A stretch of 64,000 nt of DNA, from NCBI GenBank assembly GCA_965645245.1, contig OZ287074.1, positions 1,488,001 to 1,552,000 of the forward strand, read 5' to 3'. Shown piece by piece: positions 48,282-63,402 of the stretch. This DNA comes from Massalongia carnosa (Eukaryota). The notes under the pieces were generated by a model. That model saw only the letters and a list, made by a program, of their open reading frames with translations, did no database searches and was not told the origin of the DNA. How positions within the stretch are numbered: position 1 is the stretch's first letter; the number at the start of each line of letters is the position of its first letter. The position numbers and the translations under genes are program-made.

Positions 48282-48486
48282 TTATACGAAACCAATTAGT
48301 CTTAGTGTTTATATATATAGGTATTTTCCCTAGAGAACATTACGGCTTAGTGTAATTTTTAACTAGCATTCTGGAAAACGTAATGATTTGCTAGCCACGC
48401 ACCAAATTTACTGTGACTTCATTCAGCTGAGTACTAAAGTGCGGGACTTTGGCATTAGACGTGTTGATTGTTCATATTCTCATCTG

Positions 48487-49876
48487 ATGGATGACTCTTA
48501 TCAGGTTACAGATCCTACAGATTGGCTTCAAACTCGGATGCCCCAACTAGTCCAGGTAGAAGCAGCTCTTCGGTGTCAAGTTTGCAAGGACTTTTATGGT
48601 ACTCCCATGATCACATCTTGTTCACATACGTTTTGCTCGTTGTGTATCCGTCGGTGTTTGACCAGCGATGGCATGTGTCCTGTGTGCCGAGCTCCAGATC
48701 AAGAGCTTAGACTAAGAAGAAACTGGGTCGTTCAAGAACTAGTAGATGTCTTCCAAGCTGCAAGGCCAGTGTTAATAAAGTTGGGAGAATATCCAAAGTC
48801 ATCTAATTTGGAGCTTCAAGAGATGAATGGAAAGAGGAAACTGGAAGCATCCAACCCGGATCAACTTGGAGAGCTGGATGGGCATCAGGAACAGCGCAGG
48901 AAAACATGGGTACAGAACAAGGGAGCTACAAGCGCTCACCTCTATGACTCGGATAATGTGCTTGGAGACCAAGAAGGTAGTGACTATGGGCCTAGTATGT
49001 GTTGATCAAAGCCCTAGCCATATGAAAACTAATTTAATTGGAAGATGATGGCCTTGCCGCATGTCCTATTTGCAACCAACGAATGAGGGAGGAAGAAGTA
49101 TTCCCACATTTGGATGACCACAGTAATGCCTATGACAGTCCAAGCATTAAACCATCAGGATCAAGGTAAACAGCCAGTCAAAAGCGTCTTTGCAAATATT
49201 TAAATGTGCTCATAGGCTCATGAAGTCTCTTAACGGTGTCTCGAAGTTTCAACCATCTTCGAACCCACCTGAGCGATTACCCCAATTGAGCTATTCAATA
49301 TTGAAGGACAATGCCTTACGTAAGAAGTTGACAGAGCTCGGGATTCCCACCGGGGGTTCCAGGGCACTGCTCATTCGACGACACATGGAGTGGGTTAACT
49401 TGGTGAACGCTAATAGCGATTCATCACGACCACGAACAAAGCGCGAACTGCTGCACGAGTTAGATATCTGGGACAGGAGCCAAGGCCGTCACATCTCTAA
49501 TTTTTCCGGTGACCTAATGGGTGGTGGTTCAGTTATGAGAAAAGACTTTGATGGGGAAGCCTGGGCCATAAGCCATGGTGACGAATTTCGGGCACTAATC
49601 GGCAAGGCTCGTCAAAAGGCAGGGTACAAAAGAGTTGAGAGTAATAGCAACGATACTTCGGGCGTTCCGGAGCAGAATCAAGACACTTATAACCTAGAGA
49701 CGATATCGAATCCAGCGGCTCAGTGTGATTTATTACCGACTAGCCATCATATATTGTTACAACCTGACTCTCCTCTGAGATTGAACCCTTCTGATCAAAT
49801 TCTTGACCAGATCGACACGGCTCTTCCACTCAACAACCCAAGGCATAAGGTGATTGATCAAGGTTCTGAAAATTGA
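48487..49876 (+). CDS. RAD18: Post-replication repair E3 ubiquitin ligase Rad18 (3 exons)
   Basis: DPTDW, RING LRCQVCKDF..CSHTFCSLCIRRCL..CPVCR, UBZ-type CPIC..HLD, SAP domain LSYSILKDNALRKKLTELGIP..LIRRHMEW..NAN. Confidence 0.93.
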
Positions 49877-50175
49877 GTCGATTCATCTTGTATTTGGGAA
49901 TATTGATATCATTGGTCAAGGAAGTGGCGTCCTTTTAGCTTTGTCATGAGGGATAACATGCAAAGCCTAACATTTGTATGAACTGAAATGAGCTGCAAAT
50001 GGTCGGCTTTTATGCAATGAACCGCTATGGTTTAGTAAGTATCAATGCGCTTCGATCAGACTTTGTGCTTGGGTTCTCACCATGTGTAGACCCTCCAAAA
50101 ATTTAAAGCTCTGGGCCCTCGAGTTCAGTTCAACTGGTAACCAAGGCGAGGTAGATGATGCCATGGAAAATAGTT

Positions 50176-51313
50176 TTATCTCTCAATTATGAGTAGCTGA
50201 TCCGAAGATTTAGTAGCCTCGGCCGCAGACGAGTTCCCAAGTTCTTCTAATGCAACCGGCAACGCAGTTCCTAATCCCGGTGCATCTTCAACTATCATCT
50301 CTTTTGTTAACCCTTGAATTGCATTGATGCTGAGACTTGCTAGCCGTTTCTGGGTCTCTTGTGCATATTTCATGTCTTGGTCATACTCAACCTGCTCTTT
50401 CAAGGATTTTAGCTCTTCATCAAGAGCAGCATCATCGACTACAGAATTGTTGCCAGCTACCTCAATCAGCTTGCTGACGTCATCCACTTTATTCATTTCG
50501 TTGAGGAGCTCTTCCACCATGCTCTGCAAACTCTCTGTCTTGCCAGCTTGTAAATTCAGATGTCGTAGAACCCCTGTACTAGCTTCCATGACGCGAACTA
50601 TTGAAACATGATCTACTGCTTGTTCAATTTTACTATAGATTTCTTCGAGGGTTGATAAAGTCTCTTGTCTTTGTGCGAGAGTGCTCTCGCGTAGTTTTTT
50701 CAATCGAAGAACTCTAAGCGCTTCTGGTCGATCTTGATTTTTCATTGCGGCTTGTGCCTGGCTTTTCAACATTGCGATTTGGAACTTGAGTAGCTCAGTT
50801 TGTGGAGTGAGTTCGGCCATTAGGGTTTTAAGGGACGAAATGGTTCTGTCTTGGCTTGATATGGCCTCTCCAGAGGTCGTGAACTTGACGACCTAATAAC
50901 TTTTTGTTAAATCCTAAGCTTATTTGCAAAACGGAAATTGTATTTACATGTTGATCATAAACTATAGCTCTTTTATAGTGTGTTAGAAAAGTGAGAATAA
51001 CAAGAAGGTCCGTTTTAGTCAGGTCGGACTTGAGATGCAAGGCTTTTTCAACCTCTTTTCTGAATAAATCTATGGAGTATATTTTATTGACTTCAGTACT
51101 TCTGGTGTTGATGTATGATAGAATCTGGCTTGCGGCTTTCTGTGAAGATCTTAGTACAACTCGAAAGAAAGACAAGCTTGTCTAACATACCTCTACATTT
51201 CTTCTGATTACATATTGTCCATTCTGCAGCTTTGATGACGCTTGCTTTCGTCCGATCAATTCAAGCTGATGGAGTCCCCAGGAAAAAACTTGCGATGGCC
51301 ATACATACCAGCC

Positions 51314-51349
<36 letters not shown>

Positions 51350-51814
51350 TGTACTGGGAGTTATATTTAAGAAATCTTTAATTGGAATCATATGGTACTG
51401 CGATACTGCCTCATCCTGCTCAACACATATTCAGCCACGATTATCAAAAACTGCTACCACTAGATGTGAACTTACAAATACAGTGCCTAAAGCCAACGGT
51501 CTTCCCCATTCCCTACTTTCTAATTCCTGTAGAAGCTCCTCGCCAGTCATCAATGAAAATATGTTCGGGCCGTCCGGGCCTCCTGGTGTTAAGCCTTGAA
51601 AAGTTGCCTTCATCAAAACGTCCTCCCAAGCGACAACATTAGCAGCATATCCGTCGGGATTGGTGTATCGCTGCAAGCTGAAATCAGAATAAAGGGATGG
51701 TAAACGGGCTCTGGAGGACGTCAATATACTTGTTCCGCTGCAAATAGAATAATGATCTATCAACCTTCGAAATTGCACTTCCTGATCAAGTACGAAGCTC
51801 AATAGAGAAGGCAT
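50176..51814 (-). CDS. CHMP7/Chm7-like Snf7-family ESCRT-III protein, multi-exon
   Basis: ARLPSLYSDF..NPDGYAANVVAW, WGRPLALGTV N-terminal region; C-terminal Snf7 coiled coil (ALRVLRLKKL..IEQAVD..MEASTGVL..DEEL). Confidence 0.85.
51314..51346 (-). repeat. (CAA)11 coding microsatellite encoding poly-Q
   Basis: ttg repeat on the + strand; translates as KQQQQQQQQQQQG. Confidence 0.9.
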
Positions 51815-52147
51815 GATAAAAAGAATCAATCGACCGTATTATACCCAAAAGATATGTCTGTATCTTCAGCAGATAGAACGACTAATTGTTAATGGGTGAT
51901 GCTAGAATTTCATATGTAAGGAGCATACTTGTGGATGAGATTCATGTTAAAAGCCTTAGAGGACAAATATAATCTCTGACCACTCTGCGCATTTGATGAA
52001 GGTAGAAATATCACATATTTACAAACTTTCCACCGCCACTTCGCGTCCCATGAAATAACTCCTTATATAATTTGAGATTACCACTATTAAACCTATACAT
52101 CTGATAGGGTTTTCTGCCGCTAGGGACTTTCAGTAAATCATAGACTT

Positions 52148-54398
52148 ATGACACCAAGCTCTGGTTCAGATCATGGATCGTGTCAAGATTTCCCATCAAT
52201 TGTGACCTCCAATTATCCGTCTACACTGCCGAAGCAACCATCTTGCACTCGAGAACATGCGCCATCAATCCCGAGTCCTCAATCCCTTGGAAGTGATGAG
52301 CAGATCTTCACCTCAACAGGATCACTACAGCATTCACTTTATGACCAAGCTGAGACCAAAATCTTACCTACGTCAGCTTCCCAAATATATGACCAATCTT
52401 CTGGCCTGAATGCGTTTGCAACTGCTAGGTCATCCCCCACGATTCTAGGGAAGGAAAGCATTGAGGAGCCTCGACAAATCATACTGAGGGCTTTCGCTCC
52501 TTGCATCGCGGTATATTCGTCAATAGATACTGATAATTTTGTTAAACTCAAAGGCTTCTCTGAAGGGCTCTGTGCGCTATTAAGGCCTTTTGGGGAGGAT
52601 GTATCAGGTAGGGTTATTATACGAGATAGTGTGGGGGGCAGTAGAGCATGGGAAAACTTCGGATTGCGAGTTATCGATCCTGTTACATTACAGTACTCGG
52701 GGGGGAGGGACGATAGTAAGAAAGAGAACGTTTTGCAGCAGGAATCCGGTCTCCGAAAAAATTCTTATGGCTACGATCCCACAGCGGATATAGATGAGGT
52801 CGTGAATCAGTGTCTCAAATACAAGGACGAACTTCCTGGAGAAAAAACCTCATCAGCCAAGCATGCTTTCAGTTCAAGAACACATTCTTCGAATAGCCAG
52901 TTAGCGTATGCGTTATATCTTAGGAAACTTCTATCAAGCACGGGTATTGTGCCTTACGAAACCTTTTCTCACCCTGTTGGTTGTATTATAGCCATAAGCT
53001 CACGCAATTCAACACCGATAGAAACTTTGCACGAACTGTACGAGCGTACAGGCCAAAGAGCCGATTTAAAACATGTGTGGATGAGCACCGAGTATCTTCG
53101 ATATTACATACTTCTACATGATGAGGAGAATGATGATATTGCAAAGTCTATAGCACTATTCGACCTTATGAAACGGAACTTTGGGCTTCACTGCCACCTG
53201 CTAAGGCTTCGAAGTTCTCGGTGTTTACCGACAGATGATGATAGCGTCCTAGTTCCGCCATGTGATTGGCTATCCGCAGTGGACGATTTGGCTCAATTAC
53301 AGAAAAGATGTAAGTTGCAAAACGCACAAGCTGTTGGTATGCCGGCTCACGTTTGAAGACTACCTTGATGATGAGGATACCCCGGCGCACTTTGTATACG
53401 AATCTGACGCAACCGCAATCAAAGGTTTTCTCCGGGAAATGGTAACCCAGTCCATAGTACCATTTATGGAAAGCCGGGTCACGACATGGAACGATCAAGT
53501 TGGGTCCAGACGACGTGGCATAAGTGGTCGCCTCATGTCTCTATCGAAACGGTTGGCCGGGTTCGGGTCCACGAAGGCTAATCAAGCCTCGAGTTTATCC
53601 ACTTCTAATTCAGCAGGGAGCAACTTTGATGTTGTAAAGGGCTTCTACTTACCAGATACTTCAGAAGCAGTCATGCGACGACTTGCTGACTATGCCTTCA
53701 TGTTGCGAGATTGGAAAATGGCACACACCATGTACGAGTTGTTGCGTATCGACTTCGGCAACGACAAAGCGTGGATGTATCATGCCGCGGCTAATGAAAT
53801 GTCAGCTGTCAGCTATCTTTTGATGTCCCAAAATTTGGGCTCAAAAGCCAGGCCTGAAGCCTACGAGCAAAACTTGGAGAACGCATCATACTCATACCTC
53901 ACAAGATGCTCTAAAACGATTGGTGCCATCCGATGCCTAATGGTGGCAATGGAGCTCCTCAAAAGTGGCTGGGTTTCCGGTGTAGAGGACGCTGCTGCTT
54001 GTGGTATCAAACTACTTGAAATTGGCATATTAACACCAATAGCTCAAGCCTTTGTGGCGAAACGAATTGCGGATTGCTTCAGCACTCGGGCAGGAATCGG
54101 GATGTATAAAATAGGATCTCGTGAACGACGAGCAGCGTTGTGGAATCTGTTAACAACAAGAGCTTGTCTAGACTCTAAAAGGCTGTTGCAAGCTTGCGAA
54201 GAACTCCAGCTTGCCCGGGTTGTATACAGGCCATATGGTGAAAACGATACCATGCTACCATTTCTTTCAATGAACGAGTACTGGCAGAAACTAGAACAGA
54301 ATATGAATGATGAAAACAATAGGGTTTCATTAAAAAATAATAGAAGTGTTAAAAACTCGTCAAGTTCAACGATAAAATTTGAATATGTTAAAGTTTAA
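52148..54398 (+). CDS. TRS85: TRAPP III-specific subunit Trs85/TRAPPC8 (intron ~53309-53358)
   Basis: ETFSHPVGCIIAISS, YLRYYILLHDEE, MKRNFGLHCHLLRL, QSIVPFME..WNDQVGSRRRGISGR, RRLADYAFMLRDW. Confidence 0.9.
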
Positions 54399-56178
54399 AT
54401 ATAATAATTTGTTTAATATATTAATATTGATACATTGCTTTACAAAATAATTAGTCGAATCTTAAATCCCGAAACTATGCGGTTAAAAAAACAAATATTC
54501 AACTATTGAATTCAGTTGAACTTTAAATTTGATACAATTATATGATGATGATGATGTATTCATACTCCGATATGTCACCGGCCGTAGGCCGGCCCATGCG
54601 GGCAAAGCTATATAAGTTATGTTACATGGAAAACCTTTTTCAGGTGTAAAAACCATATCCCTAGATACCTGTCCGATGTGACACCAGGCCGACGTCGGAC
54701 AGGAGACGCAGAGCGAAAATCATGTGAGAACTGTGACGCCTTGTGAGATAAGAAGGAAAAGAGAAGTGAAACTACCGTTAATTGTATAATAGTGTAGATG
54801 TCAGTAAGAATTAGGGCAGTAGACCTGTTTTCATTAGCCAAGTAGTTAATATCTTTAGAGTTTTTTATGTTTCGGTCAGCTGTTGATAGTTGTTCGTGCC
54901 AGCGGCGCGAAACATCTGTTCTCTATTGTGAATAAGTATACAGAACATAATTACGTGTTCTGGAGTTTGTCTGTGCCAGCCACATGGGCAGGCCGGTGAG
55001 GTGACGGCGGGGACCCGTCGCTGGTAGAGGAAGTCAGCTAGACCGATCTTACCGGTGCGGATCTGTGTTGTCAGGGCGCTTTCTGCCTTTTTTAGCAGCG
55101 TGTGTATTTTCAGTCGTTTTTTGCTCAGTGGGACTGATTGCGCTATGGAGGGTTCGGTGACGCGATTTTGATATGCGCTCCACGAGTCGTTCCAGACTCT
55201 CAGCTGCCGTGCTTTAATTGTCTGCATTTGTTTTTGACGAGCCAACGCTGCTACGGAGACTTCGCGGAGATGCGCTGGGGAGGGGTCGGACCATGGTGGG
55301 TGTGCTTTAGGTGGTTGAACGATTTTTGCGTCGATCAGTAGGGTTTTGGCCCAGGTGTGCTTCAGCTCTCCCGGAGTGGATTTTTTAAGGCGTTTGCGAC
55401 CTGCCTTGCCTCGGATTTTGTTAACTATTTTGCTGCATGCTGAAGAAATGACCTTCGATTGACCTCCGGCTCGGAGTCGATGTCTGGCCTGCGCCTGTAG
55501 CGTGTCGAGGTGTATATCTATGGGTGCTATATATGTCTCTGCTTTAAGAACTGGAATGGGAGTGGCTTTAAAGGCACCGGCTATGGTGCGAAGGCAGTTG
55601 TTTTGCATAACGGAGAGCTTGCTCGTTGACGTTTTTGACTTTTTGACTTCTTTGGGCATGTGCTATACGGTTGACCCGTATGTCATGACCGGACGCACTA
55701 CGGCGCTGTAAACTTGCCTTGCTTTGGTGAAGTTGGCACCCCAAGTCGATGTGGAGATTTTTGTCAATGCCATTGATTGTTTGACCATTTTCTTTTGCGT
55801 TTTGCGAACGTGCGGTCCCCATTTCAATTTGGTGTCAATTTGCAAGCCTAAGACTCTAATGTCCGTTTTTGGTTCAATTTCGGTGCTTGCAATGTTGATA
55901 GATGCAGCCATATTGAATCTTTTGGGATTTCTAGACAAGTAAATGAGTTCGTACTTCGTTGGAACGAATAGAGATCCGTGTCGGGAAGCCCACTTTTCGC
56001 ATTGTCTGTGTATTGACTCCAGAGTCTTGCAATTCTCTTCGGTACTTTTTCCGTATGCCAAAATGTTGGCATCGTCTACAAATCCTATGGCACTTGTGTT
56101 TGTGCCTGGTCGCTCACATATTTCCAATAGGTCTGCATTATAGAATAGATAAAGGATAGATGAGAGAGGGGAGCCCTG

Positions 56179-56544
56179 TGCTACGCGTCTTCTTCGGTGC
56201 CTCAGGCGCGAGGGGTGTTTGGTCTTATATAGAGCGGTCTGTAGTGTTCGTCGGGTGCAACGGGAATAGCTTCACATAAATGAGAACAATCGTCAATGCA
56301 GTAGATTGTAACTATGAAGTTAAGATGGTAGGAAAGGTTGAACACGAAGTTTCCATAAGGGAATCTTCGCTACCTATATAGTCCTTGCTCACTCTGCTCG
56401 CCCTGCTCGCCCGTGAGCTCGGTGAACTCTTCAGCTCGCCCTGCTCACAAGTGAGCCAGGTGAGCTTTCCGCTGGGTCTAAACCTAGAATGGTTTAACTG
56501 TTCGATCCATAGTAGGATGTCCTATCCCTACTAGGGTCGTAACA
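56179..56544 (-). repeat. 3' LTR
   Basis: Direct repeat of 62033-62398 with 7 transitions; preceded on the element strand by the PPT. Confidence 0.97.
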
Positions 56545-56560
56545 CGATCCCCTCCTTTCC
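56545..56560 (-). other. Polypurine tract
   Basis: ggaaaggaggggatcg immediately upstream of the 3' LTR on the element strand. Confidence 0.85.
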
Positions 56561-56625
56561 TAACGCTAGTCCCTAGCGTTTTATAACGAATGTAATCCCC
56601 CGATGAATCCCCACCCCATCGCACC

Positions 56626-57120
56626 ATGACATCTCTCAAGGCCTGCAACCGTTTGCGTCTTTACAACACCATCGTTCGAGACGGTGATCCGGCGGTCACT
56701 GCTTGTCTTCTCTGTTCTTCTCTCTCGGTCGCTTGCGTAAGAATGGAGAATCATCCCAAGTGTGCGGAGTGTGTTCGTCGTGGTCGCCCCTGTGTTGGCG
56801 CTTCGTGGGAAAGTTTGGATCGCACTCGAGACAAGTTGGAATCCGACCTTAGCTTGGCTGAGGAGGAACTTGCTCGTGCGTTGGCGAAAGTGGCCCGTCT
56901 TCGCAAGACGTTAAGCCATACAAAATCAAAAGTTGATGAGAAGGCTCTCTGTCTCGCACAAGAGCTATCAGCGGATAATGATGGAACGGAGGACGAAGTC
57001 CTCCCTGATCTATCCCAATTTATGAAGGGATTGCCCGACGACTTCTGGCGCTCGGTGGCATCTCCTTCTGCTCTCGTCGGAAGTCCTTCAGGAGTTGTTG
57101 GCAGTTCTCAAGGTTCTTAA
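56626..57120 (+). CDS. Antisense accessory ORF of the retrotransposon: Zn(II)2Cys6-spaced protein with coiled coil and acidic tail (164 aa)
   Basis: CLLC-x6-C-x8-CAEC-x6-C; heptad LDRTRDKLESDLSLAEEELARALAKVARLRK; CACC-ATG start context; no stops or frameshifts. Confidence 0.75.
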   Translation: MTSLKACNRLRLYNTIVRDGDPAVTACLLCSSLSVACVRMENHPKCAECVRRGRPCVGASWESLDRTRDKLESDLSLAEEELARALAKVARLRKTLSHTKSKVDEKALCLAQELSADNDGTEDEVLPDLSQFMKGLPDDFWRSVASPSALVGSPSGVVGSSQGS

Positions 57121-60100
57121 GTGGTTCCCACGTGTTTTCCGATGTAGGATATTCTTTCCTCTTCACTAAGTATCTCTGACCTTGCTGCTCCAGGATCTTC
57201 TCGACTTCGAATTCGTTTTCTTCCTGAGACTCATAATGAAATGTTTCCTGTATAGGTGTGCTTGGGTCGGCTGGTTCCAATAACGATATATGGAATACTG
57301 GGTGTACTTTGGCGTCTTGAGGCAGCTTCAGTTCATAGCTGACTGCTCCTCTTTGTGCTTTGATGAAAAACGGACCGACCTTGACATGGTCAAGTTTCTT
57401 GCTTGGTTTCCTCGTTTTCAAATTCTTTGTTAGTAGGTACACTTTATCCCCTTCTTTCAGCTGAGGTGTCGTTTTTCTCTTCTTATTCTGGTAGATCTCG
57501 GATTTTTTCTGCATCCTCGTGATGTTCTCATGTATCCGTTTCATTGTTTCTACCCTTCCTATTGCTGATTGTGCCGAATAGCTCTGTCTAGCGTCTCCGA
57601 ACAAATTTGGTTCTCTTCCAAAGTTCGCGAAAAAAGGCGTAACTTTGGTAGTGTCAGACACCTTTGCGTTTAGTGCCAACTGTGCCATTGGTAAGAGTTC
57701 TACCCAATTGTTCTGTGTATCGTTGACATAATGTCGCAGATATTGCTCCAGACTTTGATTAGTCCTTTCCGTCTGACCATCCGTCTGTGGATGATAAGCA
57801 GTAGACATTCTTAGTCTCGTTCCTAACAGTGGAATCAACGTCTTCCAATAGTTAGACGTAAAGAGCTTGTCCCTATCGCTAGTGATTCCTTTCGGTATTC
57901 CGTGATACCAGATCAGTCTGTCGAGCACTATGGTTCCTAGCTGCTCTGCTGAGTATTTTTCTCGGAATGGTATTATGTGAGAATACTTGGTGAGTTTGTC
58001 CACTATCACCAATATCGAGTCGTATTCTTCCTTCGTTGTTGGGTCCTTAGATTTTGGAAACTTGACGATAAAGTCCATCGTGACTTCGTCCCATGGCGAT
58101 TCAGGTGGATCCTGATACTGTATTTCGCCGTACCTCGCATGAGTCGCATGCTTATTCTTTTGACAGCTAAGACATTGTCTGATATATGTCTCGACGTGTT
58201 CCCTCATCCTTGGAAACGTACATCTTTGTCGTAAAAGCCGCAGCGTTTTGCTGACACCTGGGTGGCCCTGTAATAACCCGTTATGGTGCTCTCTTATACA
58301 TTCATCGATTTTGTCTTCCGATATTTGGAGTTTTCCCTTCACTATGGGGAATTCCTCCTGGTCGTCTCTTATAATACGGAGTGTTGCGCTCAACTCCTGT
58401 TTGTTTGTTGATAATGATCCATCCTTGTTAAACTCGTAGGATGCTGTGACTGAAGATCTCCTTTGTCTCCATATGATCGCTTCGTCGACTCAGTGCATCT
58501 GCTCTGCCATTCTCTTTTCCTGGAGTATATTGTATCGTGAACTTATATTGTCCTAACAACTCTGACCATCGCACTTGTCGTCTATTCAACTGCTTTGTGG
58601 TTGTGAAGTGCAGTAGGTTCTTGTGGTCTGTGTATATGGTAAGTTCTGGTGCTCCTTCTGCGTACATTCTCCATGACTCCAAGGACGCTACGATTGCTAA
58701 TAGTTCCTTGTCATGAATGTCGTAGTTCTGTTCTGCTGGCGAGAGTTTCCTTGATAGGTTTGCAACTGGGTGCCACTTGCCGTCGTGTTCTTGGCTAAGA
58801 CATGCTCCAATCGCTAGATCTGATGCGTCGGTTTCGATCCTAATCGCTTTCCTTCCATCGAACATTTTCAAAACTGGTTCGTCTACACATGCTTGCTGCA
58901 GCTCCCTGAATGCTGCTTCCTGTTCTGGTTTCCACGACCATGTTATATCCTTCGCAGTGAGCCTAGTCAAAGGTACCGCCTTGGAGTAATCTTTAATGAA
59001 CTTTCTGTTATAGTTGACGAAACCTAGGAACGATTGTAGTTCCTTTATATTTGTTGGTGTTTTCCATTCTTTCACAGCCCTTATCTTTTCTGGGTCGATA
59101 CGGATCCCATGTTGGCCGATAATGAAGCCTAAAAAGTTGACTTCTTCTCTGTGGAATTCACATTTTTCTGGTTTCAACTTCAAGTTCCTTTCTTTCAAGC
59201 ATTCGAGTACTTTCTGCACATGTTCTACGTGCTCTCTCAGTGACTCGGAGTAGATCAGTATGTCATCGAGGTATGCGATAACAAAAATGTCGAGGTATTT
59301 CCTAAGCGTGTCATTGATCATTTCCTGACAGGTTGCCGGGGCGTTTGTCAACCCAAATGGCATAACCTGGTACTCGTAGTGACCATATCGTGTACGAAAA
59401 GCTGTTTTCCATTCTTCTCCCTCTTTCATGCGTATGAGATTATAGGCTCCCCTCAAGTCTAGCTTGGTATAGTATTTGGCCTTGCCTAATCTTGATTGCA
59501 ATTCTCCTATGTTGGGTAATGGATATCGGTTTTTTACCGTTATCTTGTTTAGCTTTCGATAATCGACACATAGGCGGAGTGTTCCATCCTTCTTGGGTAC
59601 AAAGAGGATTGGATATCCTGCCGGTGATTGAGATTTTCTAATGAATCCCTTCTTCATATTTTCATCCAGGTATTTTCGAAGTGCTTCTAGCTCCTTCTCG
59701 GAAAGTGCATATAGAGGTCCAAACGTGGGTTGCTTGCCTGGTTCTAGCTTGATCTCATGATCCCACGGTTGATGTATAGGTAGGGCCGCTGCCGTCACCT
59801 CTTCCCGGAACAGATCTTTCCATGCCCTGTATTCATCTGGTATTTCTCCTTCAGATTTACCGAGGGTCTCAGAAGGTACGTGACTTCCTTCACTAACTCT
59901 GACTTCGTGACCTGTTTGACCTAATCCAGTGTCTGTCGAGCCGAACTCCGTTATTGGATCGTTCTTATTCGAAGCTGCAAGTTCGCGCCTTGCGATCTTT
60001 TTTAGATTCTGCTTCTCATCTACCATCGAACTCTGCCGATGCGCAGGTTGGGCTGCAATCACGCAATTGCACCGCTCAAACTTGAGTACTCTCTTCGTCC

Positions 60101-60512
60101 AATCTATCGTTGGGTTGTGCTTCCTCAACCAAGGCATACCTAACACGATGTCGTGGCTGGCCATCCGAACAACATCAAATGTTAGCTCCTCGTAGTGCTG
60201 TTGGGTTGCTACCGGTAATGGTGTTGTTTCATTCACCACTCTTCCGTCCCCACTAGGTAACGGGTTTCCGTCTATGACCATTAGGTCGTACGCGTCGTCT
60301 TTCTTTCGAGTAGGTAACCCTTTCCTATCGACAAAAGATTGCGACATAAAATTCCCTGTCGCGCCCGAATCGACCATTGCTTGCAGTCGATGTCCGTTGA
60401 CATTAATCGGCGTCTGGAATATCCGTGCATAGCTAACTGAGTTTAACTGCTTCTGGGCTATCATGTTGATCTCTTTTGGTATGCCCTTTACCAAAAGATT
60501 ATGTCTTTTCCC
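57020..60512 (-). pseudogene. pol (PR-RT-RH-IN-chromodomain) with a 1-nt frameshift near 58430
   Basis: ORFs 58428-60494 and 57020-58393 join if one T is removed from GTTTAAC; HHCC, DDE core, VGPF, chromodomain FEVEKIL..YLVK..ENTWEP. Confidence 0.92.
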
Positions 60513-62014
60513 GGTTCTTCTTGCGTTGGCTGCTGCTGTCTCTTTGGCTTCCGTGGTCTCTTAGGGTACCACCCGGAACCTTCTTTCTCTGATATGTGTA
60601 TCTGGACAGTCGTCTTCATAGCAAGCCGTCCAGCTGAGGCATGCGTGGTTGCTTTCTCGTAGCGTCGCATCTTCTCGTCTCAGCGTCGGGATATTACTCG
60701 TTTGCGAGGCTGTGCTCCCCAATACTCCTTCAATTATTTCTCCTAGTTGAGAGTCGCGCTCGAACATGCGCTCTTCGGAAGTCTTCTCGGGCTGGTTGGT
60801 CATATCCCATGCTCCAGGGATTCTGCCCATTCGGTCCAGTCCTGCAATCATTTCGTCGAACTGCTGTCGCCCTAGTTCGGTCCATCCACACTCGTCTTCA
60901 TCCTCTTGTCTAGGATACGGTGTTGGTGGTCTAAATGTTGTCTTGATTGCTTCGTTCAACTGCGTTGTCGTCGCAGGTGCCTCGTATGATCCTTTTCCAT
61001 TGAGCACCTCGAGTAACTCTTCTCGGGTCTCTACATGGAAGTATTCGTCATCTGTGCTGGGGTCCAGGGGGCTCTCGATGCTTCTTGCGGTTCCCTCCTT
61101 TTCTATCTCTTCCCATGCATCAGGATCTCTTTTCAGTGTAGCATTGATCTGTCGTCGTTGCACTAAGTTCTTCGACCGACAATCCTTCGCGAAGTGGCCC
61201 GGTTTGCCACATGAATAGCACGTTTTGTTGTTTCTATTGTTTCCCCTATTCCTTCTAGGTTGGTCTCCTTGCGTCGCTGTGTCGAGTCCAGTTCCATAGG
61301 CGTAGTACCGTAGCTATCGGTATTATTCCTGAAACGTGGTCCTCCTCTGCGATAACCAGCTGGTCCCGTAAAAGTGCCTGCACTTCTGCGTGGATCGCTG
61401 TAACGTTTTTCCATGGCACGCTCGTAGAGCTTGTCGTCGAGTTCGATCGCGGCTCCCATCAAGGATCTGAGGCTATCTATGTCTCCGCCCCATCTCATAA
61501 GTTCGTCCTTGACATTATCCTTAAGGCCTCTCTTGTACATGGCCATTAGAGCTGCGTCGTCCCACTCGGTTAAGTTGGCTTGTTCCTGGAATCGTGCTGC
61601 GTATTCTGCTGCAGACGTTCGTTGTTGCAAATGTTGTATCGCTCTCTCCGCTGTTTCCTCTTCACTAGAGACTCCAAAGACCCTACGGATCTCGGTCTTG
61701 AAACAGTCATAGCGCGCGAATACATGTTCGGGATCTTCGTCATCATCTAGATGCTTGCGCAGAAATGGTTTGAACCATCTCTCGGCCCTTCCTCTAAGAA
61801 AGGTTGATGCGAATAAGGTTTTCTTTGCTGTTGGAACATTATTAAAGGTAAAGTAGATGTCTACCTGTGTGAGCCAATCGTCCAGTCCATTACGATCTCC
61901 GTGGTATACGTCAGGCTTGTTGACCCTGACCTTGTCGTCATCGGTAGTCGTCGTCTGGTGCTGGGTATTGCCAATGGTGCTTGGAGTAGAAGTTCGTTGA
62001 CCTGATACAGACAT
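60488..62014 (-). pseudogene. gag with two 1-nt frameshifts (~61265, ~60605)
   Basis: KVNKPDVYHGDR-type capsid start, PMELD, knuckle CYSCGKPGHFAKDC in a shifted frame, LSWTACYEDDC..IH..GSGWYP. Confidence 0.88.
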
Positions 62015-62022
62015 CTTTAAGG

Positions 62023-62030
62023 GTGTTCAA
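62023..62030 (-). other. Putative self-priming primer-binding site (TTGAACAC)
   Basis: No TGG tRNA-type PBS; the sequence is complementary to GTGTTCAA at 62199-62192 within the 5' LTR. Confidence 0.65.
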
Positions 62031-62032
62031 AG

Positions 62033-62398
62033 TGCTACGCGTCTTCTTCGGTGCCTCAGGCGCGAGGGGTGTTTGGTCTTATATAGAGCGGTCTGTAGTG
62101 TTCGTCAGGTGCAACGGGAATAGCTTCACATAGATGGGAACAATCGTCAATGCAGTAGATTGTAACTATGAAGTTAAGATGGTAGGGAAGGTTGAACACG
62201 AAGTTTCCATAAGGGAATCTTCGCTACCTATATAGTCCTTGCTCACTCTGCTCGCCCCGCTCGCCCGTGAGCTCGGTGAACTCTCCAGCTCGCCCTGCTC
62301 ACAAGTGAGCCAGGTGAGCTTTCCGCTGGGTCTAAACCTAGAACGGTTTAACTGTTCGATCCATAGTAGGATGTCCTATCCCTACTAGGGTCGTAACA
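62033..62398 (-). repeat. 5' LTR (TATATA at 62229-62234)
   Basis: Direct repeat of 56179-56544; gag ATG begins 18 nt downstream. Confidence 0.97.
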
Positions 62399-63402
62399 CC
62401 CTGTGGTATGCCAGTTCTCACCGCGAATCGTCCGGTCGCTTTTCGATTTATAGCTAGAGTTGTGCTACGATCATTTAAAAAGCTGTTTAACCAATCAGTA
62501 ATCCATTTCGGGATTTTTCTTTTACGTAGATTATGCGTTAGTCTTTGATGTAAAACTGTATCAAACGCGCCGGCGACGTCTATGCTTAAAAGTGTGGCTA
62601 CTTTATCTTTTCCTTGTCCCCAAATCGTGTGAACATGTTCGGTTAGTAACTCAAGAGCTGATTCTGTAGATCTGCCCTTTCTCGCTCCCATCTGTGTGTC
62701 GGGTAGGAGCCGATGTGTTTCCGCTAAATAGGTTATTTTTGATCCTATGATAGATTCCATTACTTTGCTGAGCGTGTTGAGTAATGTAACTGGTCGGTAA
62801 GCCTTCGGCGTGGTGTAATTTCCTTTGTCTATTTTTCTTAATGCTATAGTGTTTGCCATTTTGAAGGCTCGGGGATGGTACGAAAGTGTAACGCACGACT
62901 GAAACAGAGGTGTTAATAATTCAACAAGCTATTCCGCGCATGCTTTAAGTACTATATTAGATATACCGTCAGGACGCGGTGCTTTATCGGGTTTGAGCCG
63001 ATGCAGGGCCTTCGACACTTCTGACTTGTTGATGATTATTAGATAATGCGGCGATGCTGGATAGAAGGATCCTTCTATATCGCTTAAGTCGGCCGGTGGT
63101 GATGCGGGAAAGAAAATGCTTTTCAGCATTTCGGCTTTCTCATCGAACGTGTCTGCTGTTTGATTATTGAACTTTAAAGTCGGCATTTTGGGTACTTCTC
63201 TAGCTGAGGCGTTTCGGTAGACTTACTGATCTCTTGACGAAAATTTGTCCTCTTTGCTTTTTGGATAATTTTCTGTTTCTTGTCATTAGATTTCATGTAG
63301 TTGGACCAGTCCGCTGGATCTCGTGTGTCAGACTATATGCGGCGTAATTTTTGTATGGCTTTAGTGGTAATATTGCATTCTTCTGTCCAGAAATACGCCA
63401 CG

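Follow-up and report, generated by a model that had tools for sequence, protein, structure and literature searches.

What does an open reading frame (ORF) that runs against the coding direction of a fungal retrotransposon, between its integrase and its 3' long terminal repeat (LTR), encode, and does it belong to the element at all? The question is raised by a 64,000-nt stretch of the Massalongia carnosa genome (contig OZ287074.1 of assembly GCA_965645245.1, positions 1,488,001 to 1,552,000 of the forward strand), hereafter the window, in which a Ty3/Gypsy chromovirus of 6.2 kb (56179-62398, minus strand) is accompanied by an antisense ORF (aORF) of 164 aa plus stop at 56626..57120 on the plus strand, placed between the integrase-chromodomain ORF and the polypurine tract (PPT) and 3' LTR. 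A preliminary description of this DNA had drawn attention to the ORF, and its account of a 164-aa antisense frame with a six-cysteine spacing, a CACC-ATG start (gcaccATGa in context) and a 101-nt overlap with pol agrees with the coordinates found here; the overlap, at 57020..57120, is one of 3' ends, with aORF on the plus strand and the integrase-chromodomain ORF on the minus strand. The answer to the second part of the question is that aORF is a genuine accessory gene of an ascomycete Ty3/Gypsy chromovirus lineage and not a chance ORF, since it is the window's member of a conserved, unnamed, chromovirus-borne family of small proteins that is large, fixed in position, conserved in its motifs and maintained by purifying selection.

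A conserved gene family antisense to chromovirus pol

Length alone leaves aORF within chance expectation. The preliminary description had set the clean ORF against a broken gag-pol, but three random breaks in the 5.5-kb internal region would spare a 495-nt stretch with P = 0.75, and the argument is not significant. What puts aORF beyond chance is not its length but its conservation elsewhere. A word-indexed sequence search recovered 28 relatives of 99-212 aa at 40-95% identity, the closest non-self member being 95% identical to the window protein. A family profile built from 17 relatives and scored against 1.84 billion representatives retrieved 719 cluster representatives at E ≤ 1e-3, with 243 at E ≤ 1e-10 and 29 at E ≤ 1e-30, and a second profile search contributed a further 109 proteins. 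The best 150 profile matches are nearly all of 76-263 aa, and no long, full-size Zn2Cys6 protein was found among them. The only names carried by family members are 'hypothetical protein', in Cercospora kikuchii, Cytospora mali and one record under Quercus suber, and an Atlas look-up with one homologue (P0024) led to unnamed Ascomycota clusters with no Pfam family.

The setting of the homologues was followed in metagenome contigs, a scan of which yielded 35 loci with an aORF homologue (L numbers below); these loci were then probed with the window's gag, reverse transcriptase and integrase proteins. It had been proposed that true homologues should always lie antisense between the chromodomain and the 3' LTR, and the loci agree: in 29 of 29 testable loci the 3' end of the homologue directly meets an integrase-chromodomain frame of the other strand, which either overlaps it or lies no more than a few hundred bases away. 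The other six (L005, L006, L009, L026, L028 and L033) have at most ~120 nt of flank on the integrase side. Few projects contributed to the 35 loci, some of which form near-identical pairs (L017/L018, L020/L021, L031/L032 and L011/L012), so that they represent about a dozen lineages and are not independent. The six-cysteine motif is retained in 34 of them, the exception being the truncated L014, and all six cysteines are invariant in a 22-row N-terminal alignment. The ORF is intact in 26 loci (149-234 aa), cut by stops or frameshifts in six and by the contig end in three. Most related copies have kept both the frame and the cysteines, as the preliminary description expected of a real gene.

Conservation extends beyond the cysteines, to a block C-x-E-C-[VT]-R-R-G-R-P-C-V-x-x-S-W-E-S-L-D, an N-terminal N-R-L-R-L...I helix, a K-A-L-C-L motif and a D-D-N-D-G...F-W tail. 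The family is defined here as proteins of ~150-215 aa with an N-terminal helix, a six-cysteine cluster containing C-x-E-C-x-R-x-G-x-x-C, a SWESLD linker and a long helix; the window aORF has each of these features, including the antisense placement abutting the 3' end of the integrase.

In 12 of the loci (L004, L008, L011-L013, L015, L019, L023, L024, L027, L031 and L032) a gag frame was also seen on the opposite strand, ~450-770 nt upstream of aORF. This order of integrase, aORF, LTR and gag reflects either tandem elements that share an LTR or an assembly collapsed over the LTR. In addition, many called family proteins (P0018, P0022, P0026, P0027 and many of the profile matches) start at an internal methionine before the fourth cysteine, M40 in the window protein, and are without the first three cysteines; these short-start forms may have arisen from gene calling on damaged copies, or they may represent a genuine short version of the protein.

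Purifying selection on the antisense frame

Contigs of four public runs (X1-X4) carry a high-depth form that is ~95% identical to the window copy and matches protein P0002. Compared with the window, the 24 single-letter differences listed for this form in aORF resolve into 15 synonymous and 6 non-synonymous codon events; the list holds the best-supported rows and S152P of P0002 is absent from it, so the balance, somewhat less favourable to selection, is 15 synonymous to at least 7 non-synonymous. By chance, 24% of random changes and 34% of transitions would be synonymous, and 15 of 21 corresponds to p = 5e-4. Outside the pol overlap, that is in 394 of the 495 nt, 13 of 18 codon events are synonymous (p = 0.001). 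The sole aORF indel in the X1-X4 form is of 3 nt, and gag-pol in the same runs carries non-triplet indels at several places.

The comparison of metagenome copies gives a similar picture. Ratios of non-synonymous to synonymous substitution (dN/dS) outside the pol overlap, calculated by the Nei-Gojobori method (NG86), were 0.10 (L011/L012), 0.12 (L004/L008), 0.20, 0.30 and 0.31, with 0.42-0.62 for the locus pairs that include L016. A value of 1.6 for L001/L002 speaks against constraint; both copies look damaged by repeat-induced point mutation (RIP), being rich in C-to-T and G-to-A changes and having a pol interrupted by stops. A ratio near 1 had been named beforehand as evidence against a functional gene, and in the less damaged copies the ratio stays well below it. 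To judge by these substitution patterns, aORF is under purifying selection.

A separate observation concerns copies rich in C-to-T and G-to-A changes (L013 7992-9397, L016 7285-8736, L001 1164-2802 and L002 7998-9552), in which the integrase has 4-8 stops and aORF is open. In L013 and L016, none of 18 susceptible aORF codons was turned into a stop, against 13 of 59 in the integrase (p = 0.03). This is a hint from two related copies; aORF may outlive the element under RIP, or the difference may be due to chance.

A divergent Zn2Cys6-like domain, a long helix and an acidic tail

The cysteines of aORF are arranged as C27-x2-C30-x6-C37-x8-C46-x2-C49-x6-C56 (residues 27-56, 56704..56793, plus strand), an arrangement that satisfies the Zn2Cys6 spacing rule C-x2-C-x6-C-x5-12-C-x2-C-x6-8-C, and the identification of a Zn2Cys6-like cluster is drawn from this spacing, from alignment and from models. 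A helix at residues 4-19 precedes the cluster and belongs to the same modelled domain. The long helix that follows (residues 61-116, 56806..56973, plus strand) opens with the conserved SWESLDRTR linker, contains the conserved KALCL motif (C109) and is the predicted homodimer interface. It gives way to an acidic/aromatic tail at residues 117-141 (DNDG...DDFW; 56974..57048, plus strand), DNDGTEDEVLPDLSQFMKGLPDDFW, which is rich in Asp/Glu and aromatics, is modelled with low confidence and is probably disordered.

Of the Pfam families, Zn_clus (PF00172) is the best for the window aORF, with 18.2 bits and E = 0.0027. Among 21 locus ORFs it is found in 10 at E ≤ 0.1, the best scoring 20.3 bits, and among 146 scanned members (145 representatives and the window protein) in 4 at E ≤ 0.01. 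The gathering cut-off of 21 bits is reached by no family member scanned, and because the scores stay under it the family is, by Pfam's rule, not a member of PF00172; the hidden Markov model comparison put forward in the preliminary description thus turned out negative, and the family should not be filed under PF00172 without experimental or profile-profile support. When the family profile was run against PDB sequences, Gal4 ranked first (E = 0.029), and Hap1 was aligned across the cluster and the following helix (E = 0.2).

The AlphaFold2 model of the whole protein has a predicted local distance difference test score (pLDDT) of 73, with values above 90 in helix 61-116 and below 55 in the tail. 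Residues 1-65 are modelled with a pLDDT of 86.8 and a predicted template modelling score (pTM) of 0.68, helix 4-19 packing on two short helix-loop halves. With this domain model, ranks 1-14 in Foldseek are all Zn2Cys6 DNA-binding domains (E 0.53-3.4), including Pho7, Gal4, Leu3, Ppr1, Hap1, Put3, Lac9 and AlcR, with a root-mean-square deviation (rmsd) of mostly 2.0-2.9 Å over 33-38 columns and of 6.3-8.8 Å in three rows. A Foldseek-independent search of 48,161 chains (VIA) returned Pho7, Ppr1, Gal4, Leu3, Lac9 and AlcR as its top six (Z 2.6-3.2), five of them at rmsd 1.5-2.8 Å over 33-42 residues and Pho7 at 4.6 Å over 44, and structure searches with the whole-protein model likewise rank Zn2Cys6 domains first. 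The absence of a predicted binuclear-cluster fold had been named as evidence that would refute the zinc-cluster interpretation. The rankings favour such a fold, Zn2Cys6 domains heading every one of them, but no score is significant alone: Foldseek E values are at least 0.49 and Z at most 3.8, with no Foldseek match at E ≤ 0.001 for either the whole model or the domain. The individual scores are weak because the domain is tiny.

In Gal4, Lys17 and Lys18 of the first loop contact DNA. The preliminary description had stated that basic residues are missing from this loop, and the loop of the window protein indeed reads SSLSVA; in the nearest clade it is SSLSIL or SNLSIL, and the distant relatives L010, L029, L030, L031 and L034 have an Arg at position 3 or 4. 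The second half of the cluster, C-x-E-C-[VT]-R-R-G-R-P-C, is strongly basic and nearly invariant. What survives of the Gal4-type reading offered earlier is the conserved layout of cluster, helix and acidic tail; what does not is a score that would place the family above the Pfam cut-off. The aORF product is accordingly described here as Zn2Cys6-like but divergent, its long helix being predicted to dimerise and its tail being acidic and aromatic. On paper, this layout is that of a minimal Gal4-like factor without the large middle region of the cellular Zn2Cys6 factors.

Modelled as a homodimer, residues 20-125 gave an interaction prediction score from aligned errors (ipSAE) of 0.43, against 0.00 for the best control; at least 72% of contacts recur between runs and the partner pLDDT is at least 72. 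These values reach the mark that was applied, as did 21 of the 30 solved homodimers and none of the 23 single chains used for calibration; for eukaryotes the figures were 17 of 29 and 0 of 30, with only 1 of 7 passing where an older solved relative was lacking. The predicted contacts (78-92, 71-96 and 85-85, with i+j ~167-170) describe an antiparallel coil.

Different histories of aORF and pol

Over 209 locus pairs, the identities of aORF and integrase are correlated with a Spearman coefficient of 0.59, and the two genes do not share one tree. In the integrase tree, L001-3, L007, L010-14 and L016 form one tight clade (100/100), but their aORFs fall into four deep lineages; the window integrase groups with L020/L023/L024/L027 (100/98), whereas the window aORF groups with L001-3 (92/94). 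In approximately unbiased (AU) tests, a clade of the window with L001-3 was rejected by the integrase data (log-likelihood difference 185.9, p = 1.4e-4) and a clade of the window with L020/23/24/27 was rejected by the aORF data (119.7, p = 4.8e-4), both p-values being optimistic, and weaker evidence for it, as the clades were named after the trees had been seen. This mismatch in history is a new point, beyond what had been observed earlier.

The place where the histories part can be followed along the sequence. L012 and L007 share 86-97% nucleotide identity in pol, which falls to 35-68% beyond the pol stop, across aORF and the LTR next to it. L001 and L010 share 92-96% in pol and 38-67% in aORF and the U3 region of the LTR (U3), but again 81-91% at 250-450 nt before the ATG; this far part of the LTR would be R-U5, to judge by its position relative to the TATA box. 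The identity switch sits at the pol stop and, for L001 against L010, near the LTR TATA. As neutral divergence cannot turn 95% into 50% next door, aORF, PPT and U3 appear to have been exchanged between lineages, and the aORF-U3 segment looks like an exchangeable cassette; the exchange would fit template switching during reverse transcription. Metagenome repeat contigs can be chimeric; the window copy, which lies in a long genomic contig, shows the same incongruence.

Hexamer arrays in U3

The preliminary description had noted repeated units in U3, and GCTCGCCC and GTGAGC are present at 56387-56465. Eight GCTC[A/G]C / GTGAGC hexamers, spaced 8-9 nt and in the orientations >>>< and >><<, form here a candidate operator or upstream activating sequence, which includes the palindrome GCTCACAAGTGAGC. 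Directly beside the array lies a TATATA (56375-56380) that is conserved in L001, L002, L005 and L006, and a second copy is found at 56226-56231, in both cases where it had been placed before. Between the window and these four loci, whose aORFs are 62-66% identical to that of the window, the TATA, the hexamers and the LTR end with the PPT are conserved, and the 60 nt between the conserved blocks are not.

Other lineages have repeated hexamers of their own at a like distance, 160-400 nt before the ATG. The lineage-specific hexamer occurs in 5-13 copies and in many cases makes up 14-bp palindromes, of which L020 has three copies of GCTCGTGGACGAGC, L027 three of GCTCGTTGACGAGC and L026 two of GATCATGAATGATC. 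The hexamers are variations on G[A/C]TC[A/G][C/T]. Perfect 6-N-6 inverted repeats with gaps of 1-8 nt, counted in 20 non-redundant upstream regions, number 9-24, against ~2.3 in dinucleotide shuffles; a preferred palindrome gap of 2 was considered and rejected, because every gap from 1 to 8 shows the enrichment. In these upstream sequences, pairs of CGG/CCG triplets are few and follow no common pattern. The arrays change together with the cassette inside the tight pol clade, with GCTCAC in L001-3, GCACGA in L010 and ACGATC in L011-13; further arrays are made of GTCGAC in L004 and L009 and of AGTCGA in L008.

Two minor observations belong to the same regions. A TATA-like motif 27-42 nt before the ATG (L004, L008, L011-L013 and L024) was discarded, being too close to serve that ATG. 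In the cluster, L020 and L027, with half-site GCTCGT, share C-N-x-C and F-x-E-G, and the GCTCAC lineages L015, L023 and L024 have C-D-x-C and F-x-[S/D]-G; cluster residues may co-vary with the hexamer sequence, on contrasts that are too few.

Proposed role and competing explanations

We hold with moderate confidence that aORF is an accessory gene encoding a dimeric Zn2Cys6-like regulator of the element's own LTR, which travels with U3. The gene would be transcribed rightwards from the U3 end or from the PPT spacer of the 3' LTR, the distance from the LTR to the aORF ATG being about 80 nt (aORF begins 81 nt past the LTR). Its protein would dimerise through the long helix, and the dimer would bind the GCTC[A/G]C / GTGAGC array beside the TATA box in U3 and set LTR transcription of the element, either as an activator through its acidic tail or as an autoregulator. 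Since every round of replication copies U3 into both LTRs, regulator and target would travel together, aORF, PPT and U3 forming one unit that template switching could exchange between related elements.

Several points weigh against this role. The place of the family under the Pfam cut-off, the weakness of each structural score and a first loop devoid of basic residues in the window protein all concern the identity of the DNA-binding domain. The pass of the homodimer model may reflect likeness to solved Zn2Cys6 or coiled-coil dimers, and its antiparallel coil is unlike the coils of Gal4, Put3 and Hap1, which are parallel. With respect to the target, CGG triplets are typical of the Zn2Cys6 family and the window hexamers differ from them; the count for the pattern GMTCRY (209 against 54) is circular, since the pattern was derived from the same data; and GCTCAC arrays also accompany a different aORF clade (L023 and L024), so that no one-to-one code links aORF and hexamer. 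aORF and U3 are physically adjacent, and their joint exchange requires no functional link. Finally, four short upstream ATGs lie within 137 nt of the aORF start, at -137, -109, -36 and -23, which makes a transcription start deep in the LTR awkward.

The main rival, possible although we consider it unlikely, is that aORF encodes a real factor of the element that does not read the LTR, its cluster and helix binding instead a host protein, chromatin or RNA. Such a factor might counter silencing, help the chromodomain integrase in target choice or act as a decoy for a host Zn2Cys6 factor. The evidence from conservation, position and selection applies equally to it, and it would accommodate the missing basic residue in the first loop of the window's clade, the score below the Zn_clus cut-off and an antiparallel dimer that would set the two clusters far apart, together with helix 4-19 and the invariant SWESLD linker, which lie outside the structural matches. 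It does less well with the strongly basic, nearly invariant second half of the cluster, with the Arg that distant relatives keep in the first loop, and with the conserved palindromic hexamer arrays of U3, which are of the kind used by dimeric DNA binders.

The remaining explanations fit the data poorly. It is very unlikely that the antisense RNA is what matters, whether by giving rise to double-stranded RNA or by damping the sense transcript, with the open frame as a by-product. Antisense transcripts of LTR elements are common. Abundant small RNAs are derived from Botrytis Gypsy elements, according to the accessible text of Porquier et al. 2021 (PMC8365987). A role of the RNA alone would leave unexplained a synonymous excess that is specific to the aORF frame, six cysteines kept across about a dozen lineages down to 26-31% identity, and an N-terminal domain that models with a confident fold. 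An origin from the host, as a Zn2Cys6 gene fragment recently captured by one element or a domesticated gene lying beside remnants, is slightly less probable still; cellular Zn2Cys6 factors are the nearest structural neighbours, but the same place and orientation recur in all 29 testable loci, across integrases only 36-59% identical to that of the window, and the best 150 profile matches include no full-size Zn2Cys6 protein. A capture, if it happened, was old and single, or was followed by exchange among elements. Least tenable of all is a chance ORF, or one that owes its open frame solely to constraint on the pol gene it overlaps or on 3' sequences acting in cis, a reading that the unremarkable length, the probability attached to intactness beside a broken pol and the 101 nt shared with pol would allow, but that is already contradicted by the conservation, profile and selection data, given the synonymous excess outside pol, homologues at 26-70% identity with intact frames in 26 of 35 loci, and the 719 profile clusters.

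If aORF is a regulator of its own LTR, a further and rather doubtful step would be to see aORF, PPT and U3 as a private regulatory cassette, in which factor and operator array co-evolve and are swapped as a unit between near-identical elements, an arrangement that would resemble the repressor-operator immunity regions of lambdoid phages. Every lineage would then possess a switch of its own for transcription that does not depend on host factors, and there would be no cross-activation by superinfecting or competing elements that carry a different cassette.

Related systems and significance

The nearest functional analogue of the mechanism proposed for aORF is HBZ of human T-cell leukaemia virus type 1 (HTLV-1), a dimerising bZIP transcription factor encoded antisense between the last sense gene and the 3' LTR, which is made from the 3' LTR and influences LTR-driven transcription. 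Transcription and activity have been shown for HBZ and are putative for aORF; the two differ in that HBZ has a bZIP instead of a zinc cluster, has no sequence relation to aORF and belongs to an animal retrovirus, not to a fungal retrotransposon. With Gal4, Ppr1, Put3, Hap1, Leu3 and Pho7, the aORF protein shares the six-cysteine spacing and, after it, a linker, a helix (which in aORF is predicted to dimerise) and an acidic tail. It differs from these factors in its size (~165 aa, without the Fungal_trans middle region), in its extra N-terminal helix, antiparallel modelled coil and lack of basic first-loop residues, in its score below the Pfam cut-off, and in being borne by a retrotransposon and not by the host.

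Among fungal elements, an antisense gene named brtn is said to have been described by Zhao et al. 2011 (Virology 417:248). In the accessible text of three papers, brtn figures as an additional antisense gene of the Boty-like (BcGypsy1) elements of Botrytis cinerea (PMC8365987, PMC4227169, PMC5987419), and a Monilinia transcript is reported there as similar to both a truncated Pol and BRTN. Compared by these descriptions, brtn and aORF are both antisense extra genes of a fungal chromodomain-Gypsy element, and the Monilinia transcript would fit an adjacent or overlapping arrangement such as that of aORF. No family match in the sequence and profile searches is named BRTN, and the text supplements of PMC8365987 do not mention brtn; the 'brtn-106' that occurs in the accessible text of PMC4227169 might, at a guess, be a short form like those that begin at the internal methionine. 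Extra ORFs between pol and the 3' LTR, some of them antisense, are described in the Retand/Tat LTR retrotransposons of plants, where they are conserved within lineages and of unknown function (PMC7264820, PMC11963269, as far as their accessible text goes); they belong to another kingdom and element lineage, and no Zn2Cys6-like domain is reported for them in that text. Some full-length fungal chromoviruses are drawn with an 'additional ORF with unknown function' by Novikova et al. 2010 (PMC2864245). The likeness lies in the extra ORF of a fungal Gypsy element, its sequence, orientation and domain not being given in the accessible text.

Among the papers listed by literature searches, with most subscription journals outside their reach, none reports an LTR retrotransposon that encodes a Zn2Cys6 or binuclear-cluster protein. 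The usual view is that LTR retrotransposons depend on host transcription factors, and to our knowledge an element-encoded transcription factor is rare outside the complex retroviruses. Antisense accessory genes of retroelements are already known; the one described here belongs to a zinc-cluster-like family and shows signs of modular exchange together with U3. A large, unannotated zinc-cluster-like family is a standard part of an ascomycete chromovirus lineage, and ORFs of this type are annotated as host genes in fungal genomes. If the proposed mechanism is true, fungal elements would control their own promoters, which would offer a handle on transposition bursts in fungal genomes, including those of plant pathogens, and a source of compact, orthogonal factor/operator pairs.

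The carrier element and its surroundings

The element that hosts aORF has the features of a chromovirus: LTRs with TG..CA ends, a target duplication, the order gag, protease, reverse transcriptase, RNase H and integrase, and a C-terminal chromodomain. The 3' LTR (56179-56544, minus strand), of 366 nt and with TG..CA ends, lies directly upstream of aORF in the direction of the latter, and the 5' LTR (62033-62398, minus strand) is 98% identical to it; both are flanked by the 5-bp target-site duplication CCCTG (56174-56178 and 62399-62403). The PPT, GGAAAGGAGGGGATCG on the minus strand (~56545-56562), abuts the 3' LTR within a conserved block at the LTR end. Contigs from runs X1, X3 and X4 contain the empty site, joining 56173 to 62399 and skipping 6225 nt, and since this skip equals exactly the element plus one target duplication, the bounds of the element are correct.

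Pfam searches of the element's ORFs identified Retrotrans_gag, an aspartyl protease, RVT_1, RNase H, Integrase_H2C2, rve and Chromo. On the minus strand, the gag ORF occupies 61163-62014 and is followed in another frame by a 200-aa ORF (60561-61163), which an in-frame stop separates from the ORF for protease, reverse transcriptase and RNase H (58428-60494); a change of frame separates the latter from the ORF for the integrase (H2C2, rve and SH3) and chromodomain (57020-58393). gag-pol is thus broken at three places, as the preliminary description had counted, but it had taken all three for frameshifts, and they consist of two changes of frame and one in-frame stop. Within the 64-kb window, no second copy of the chromovirus and no solo LTR were found.

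The chromovirus is itself inserted in another retroelement on the minus strand (54865-56127 and 62338-63186). On one side, the ORF at 62338-62859 corresponds to the beginning of RVT_1 (positions 3-124 of 205), and past the insertion two ORFs, at 55663-56127 and 54865-55659, continue on the same strand; the outer retroelement was also seen without the insertion in contigs of runs X1, X3 and X4. Host genes adjoin this transposon nest at 48388-54398. They comprise a RING-finger ORF followed by a SAP-domain ORF, which we take together to be Rad18-like, a Snf7-family ORF on the minus strand, and a TRAPP Trs85 gene split across two listed ORFs, probably by an intron or a change of frame.

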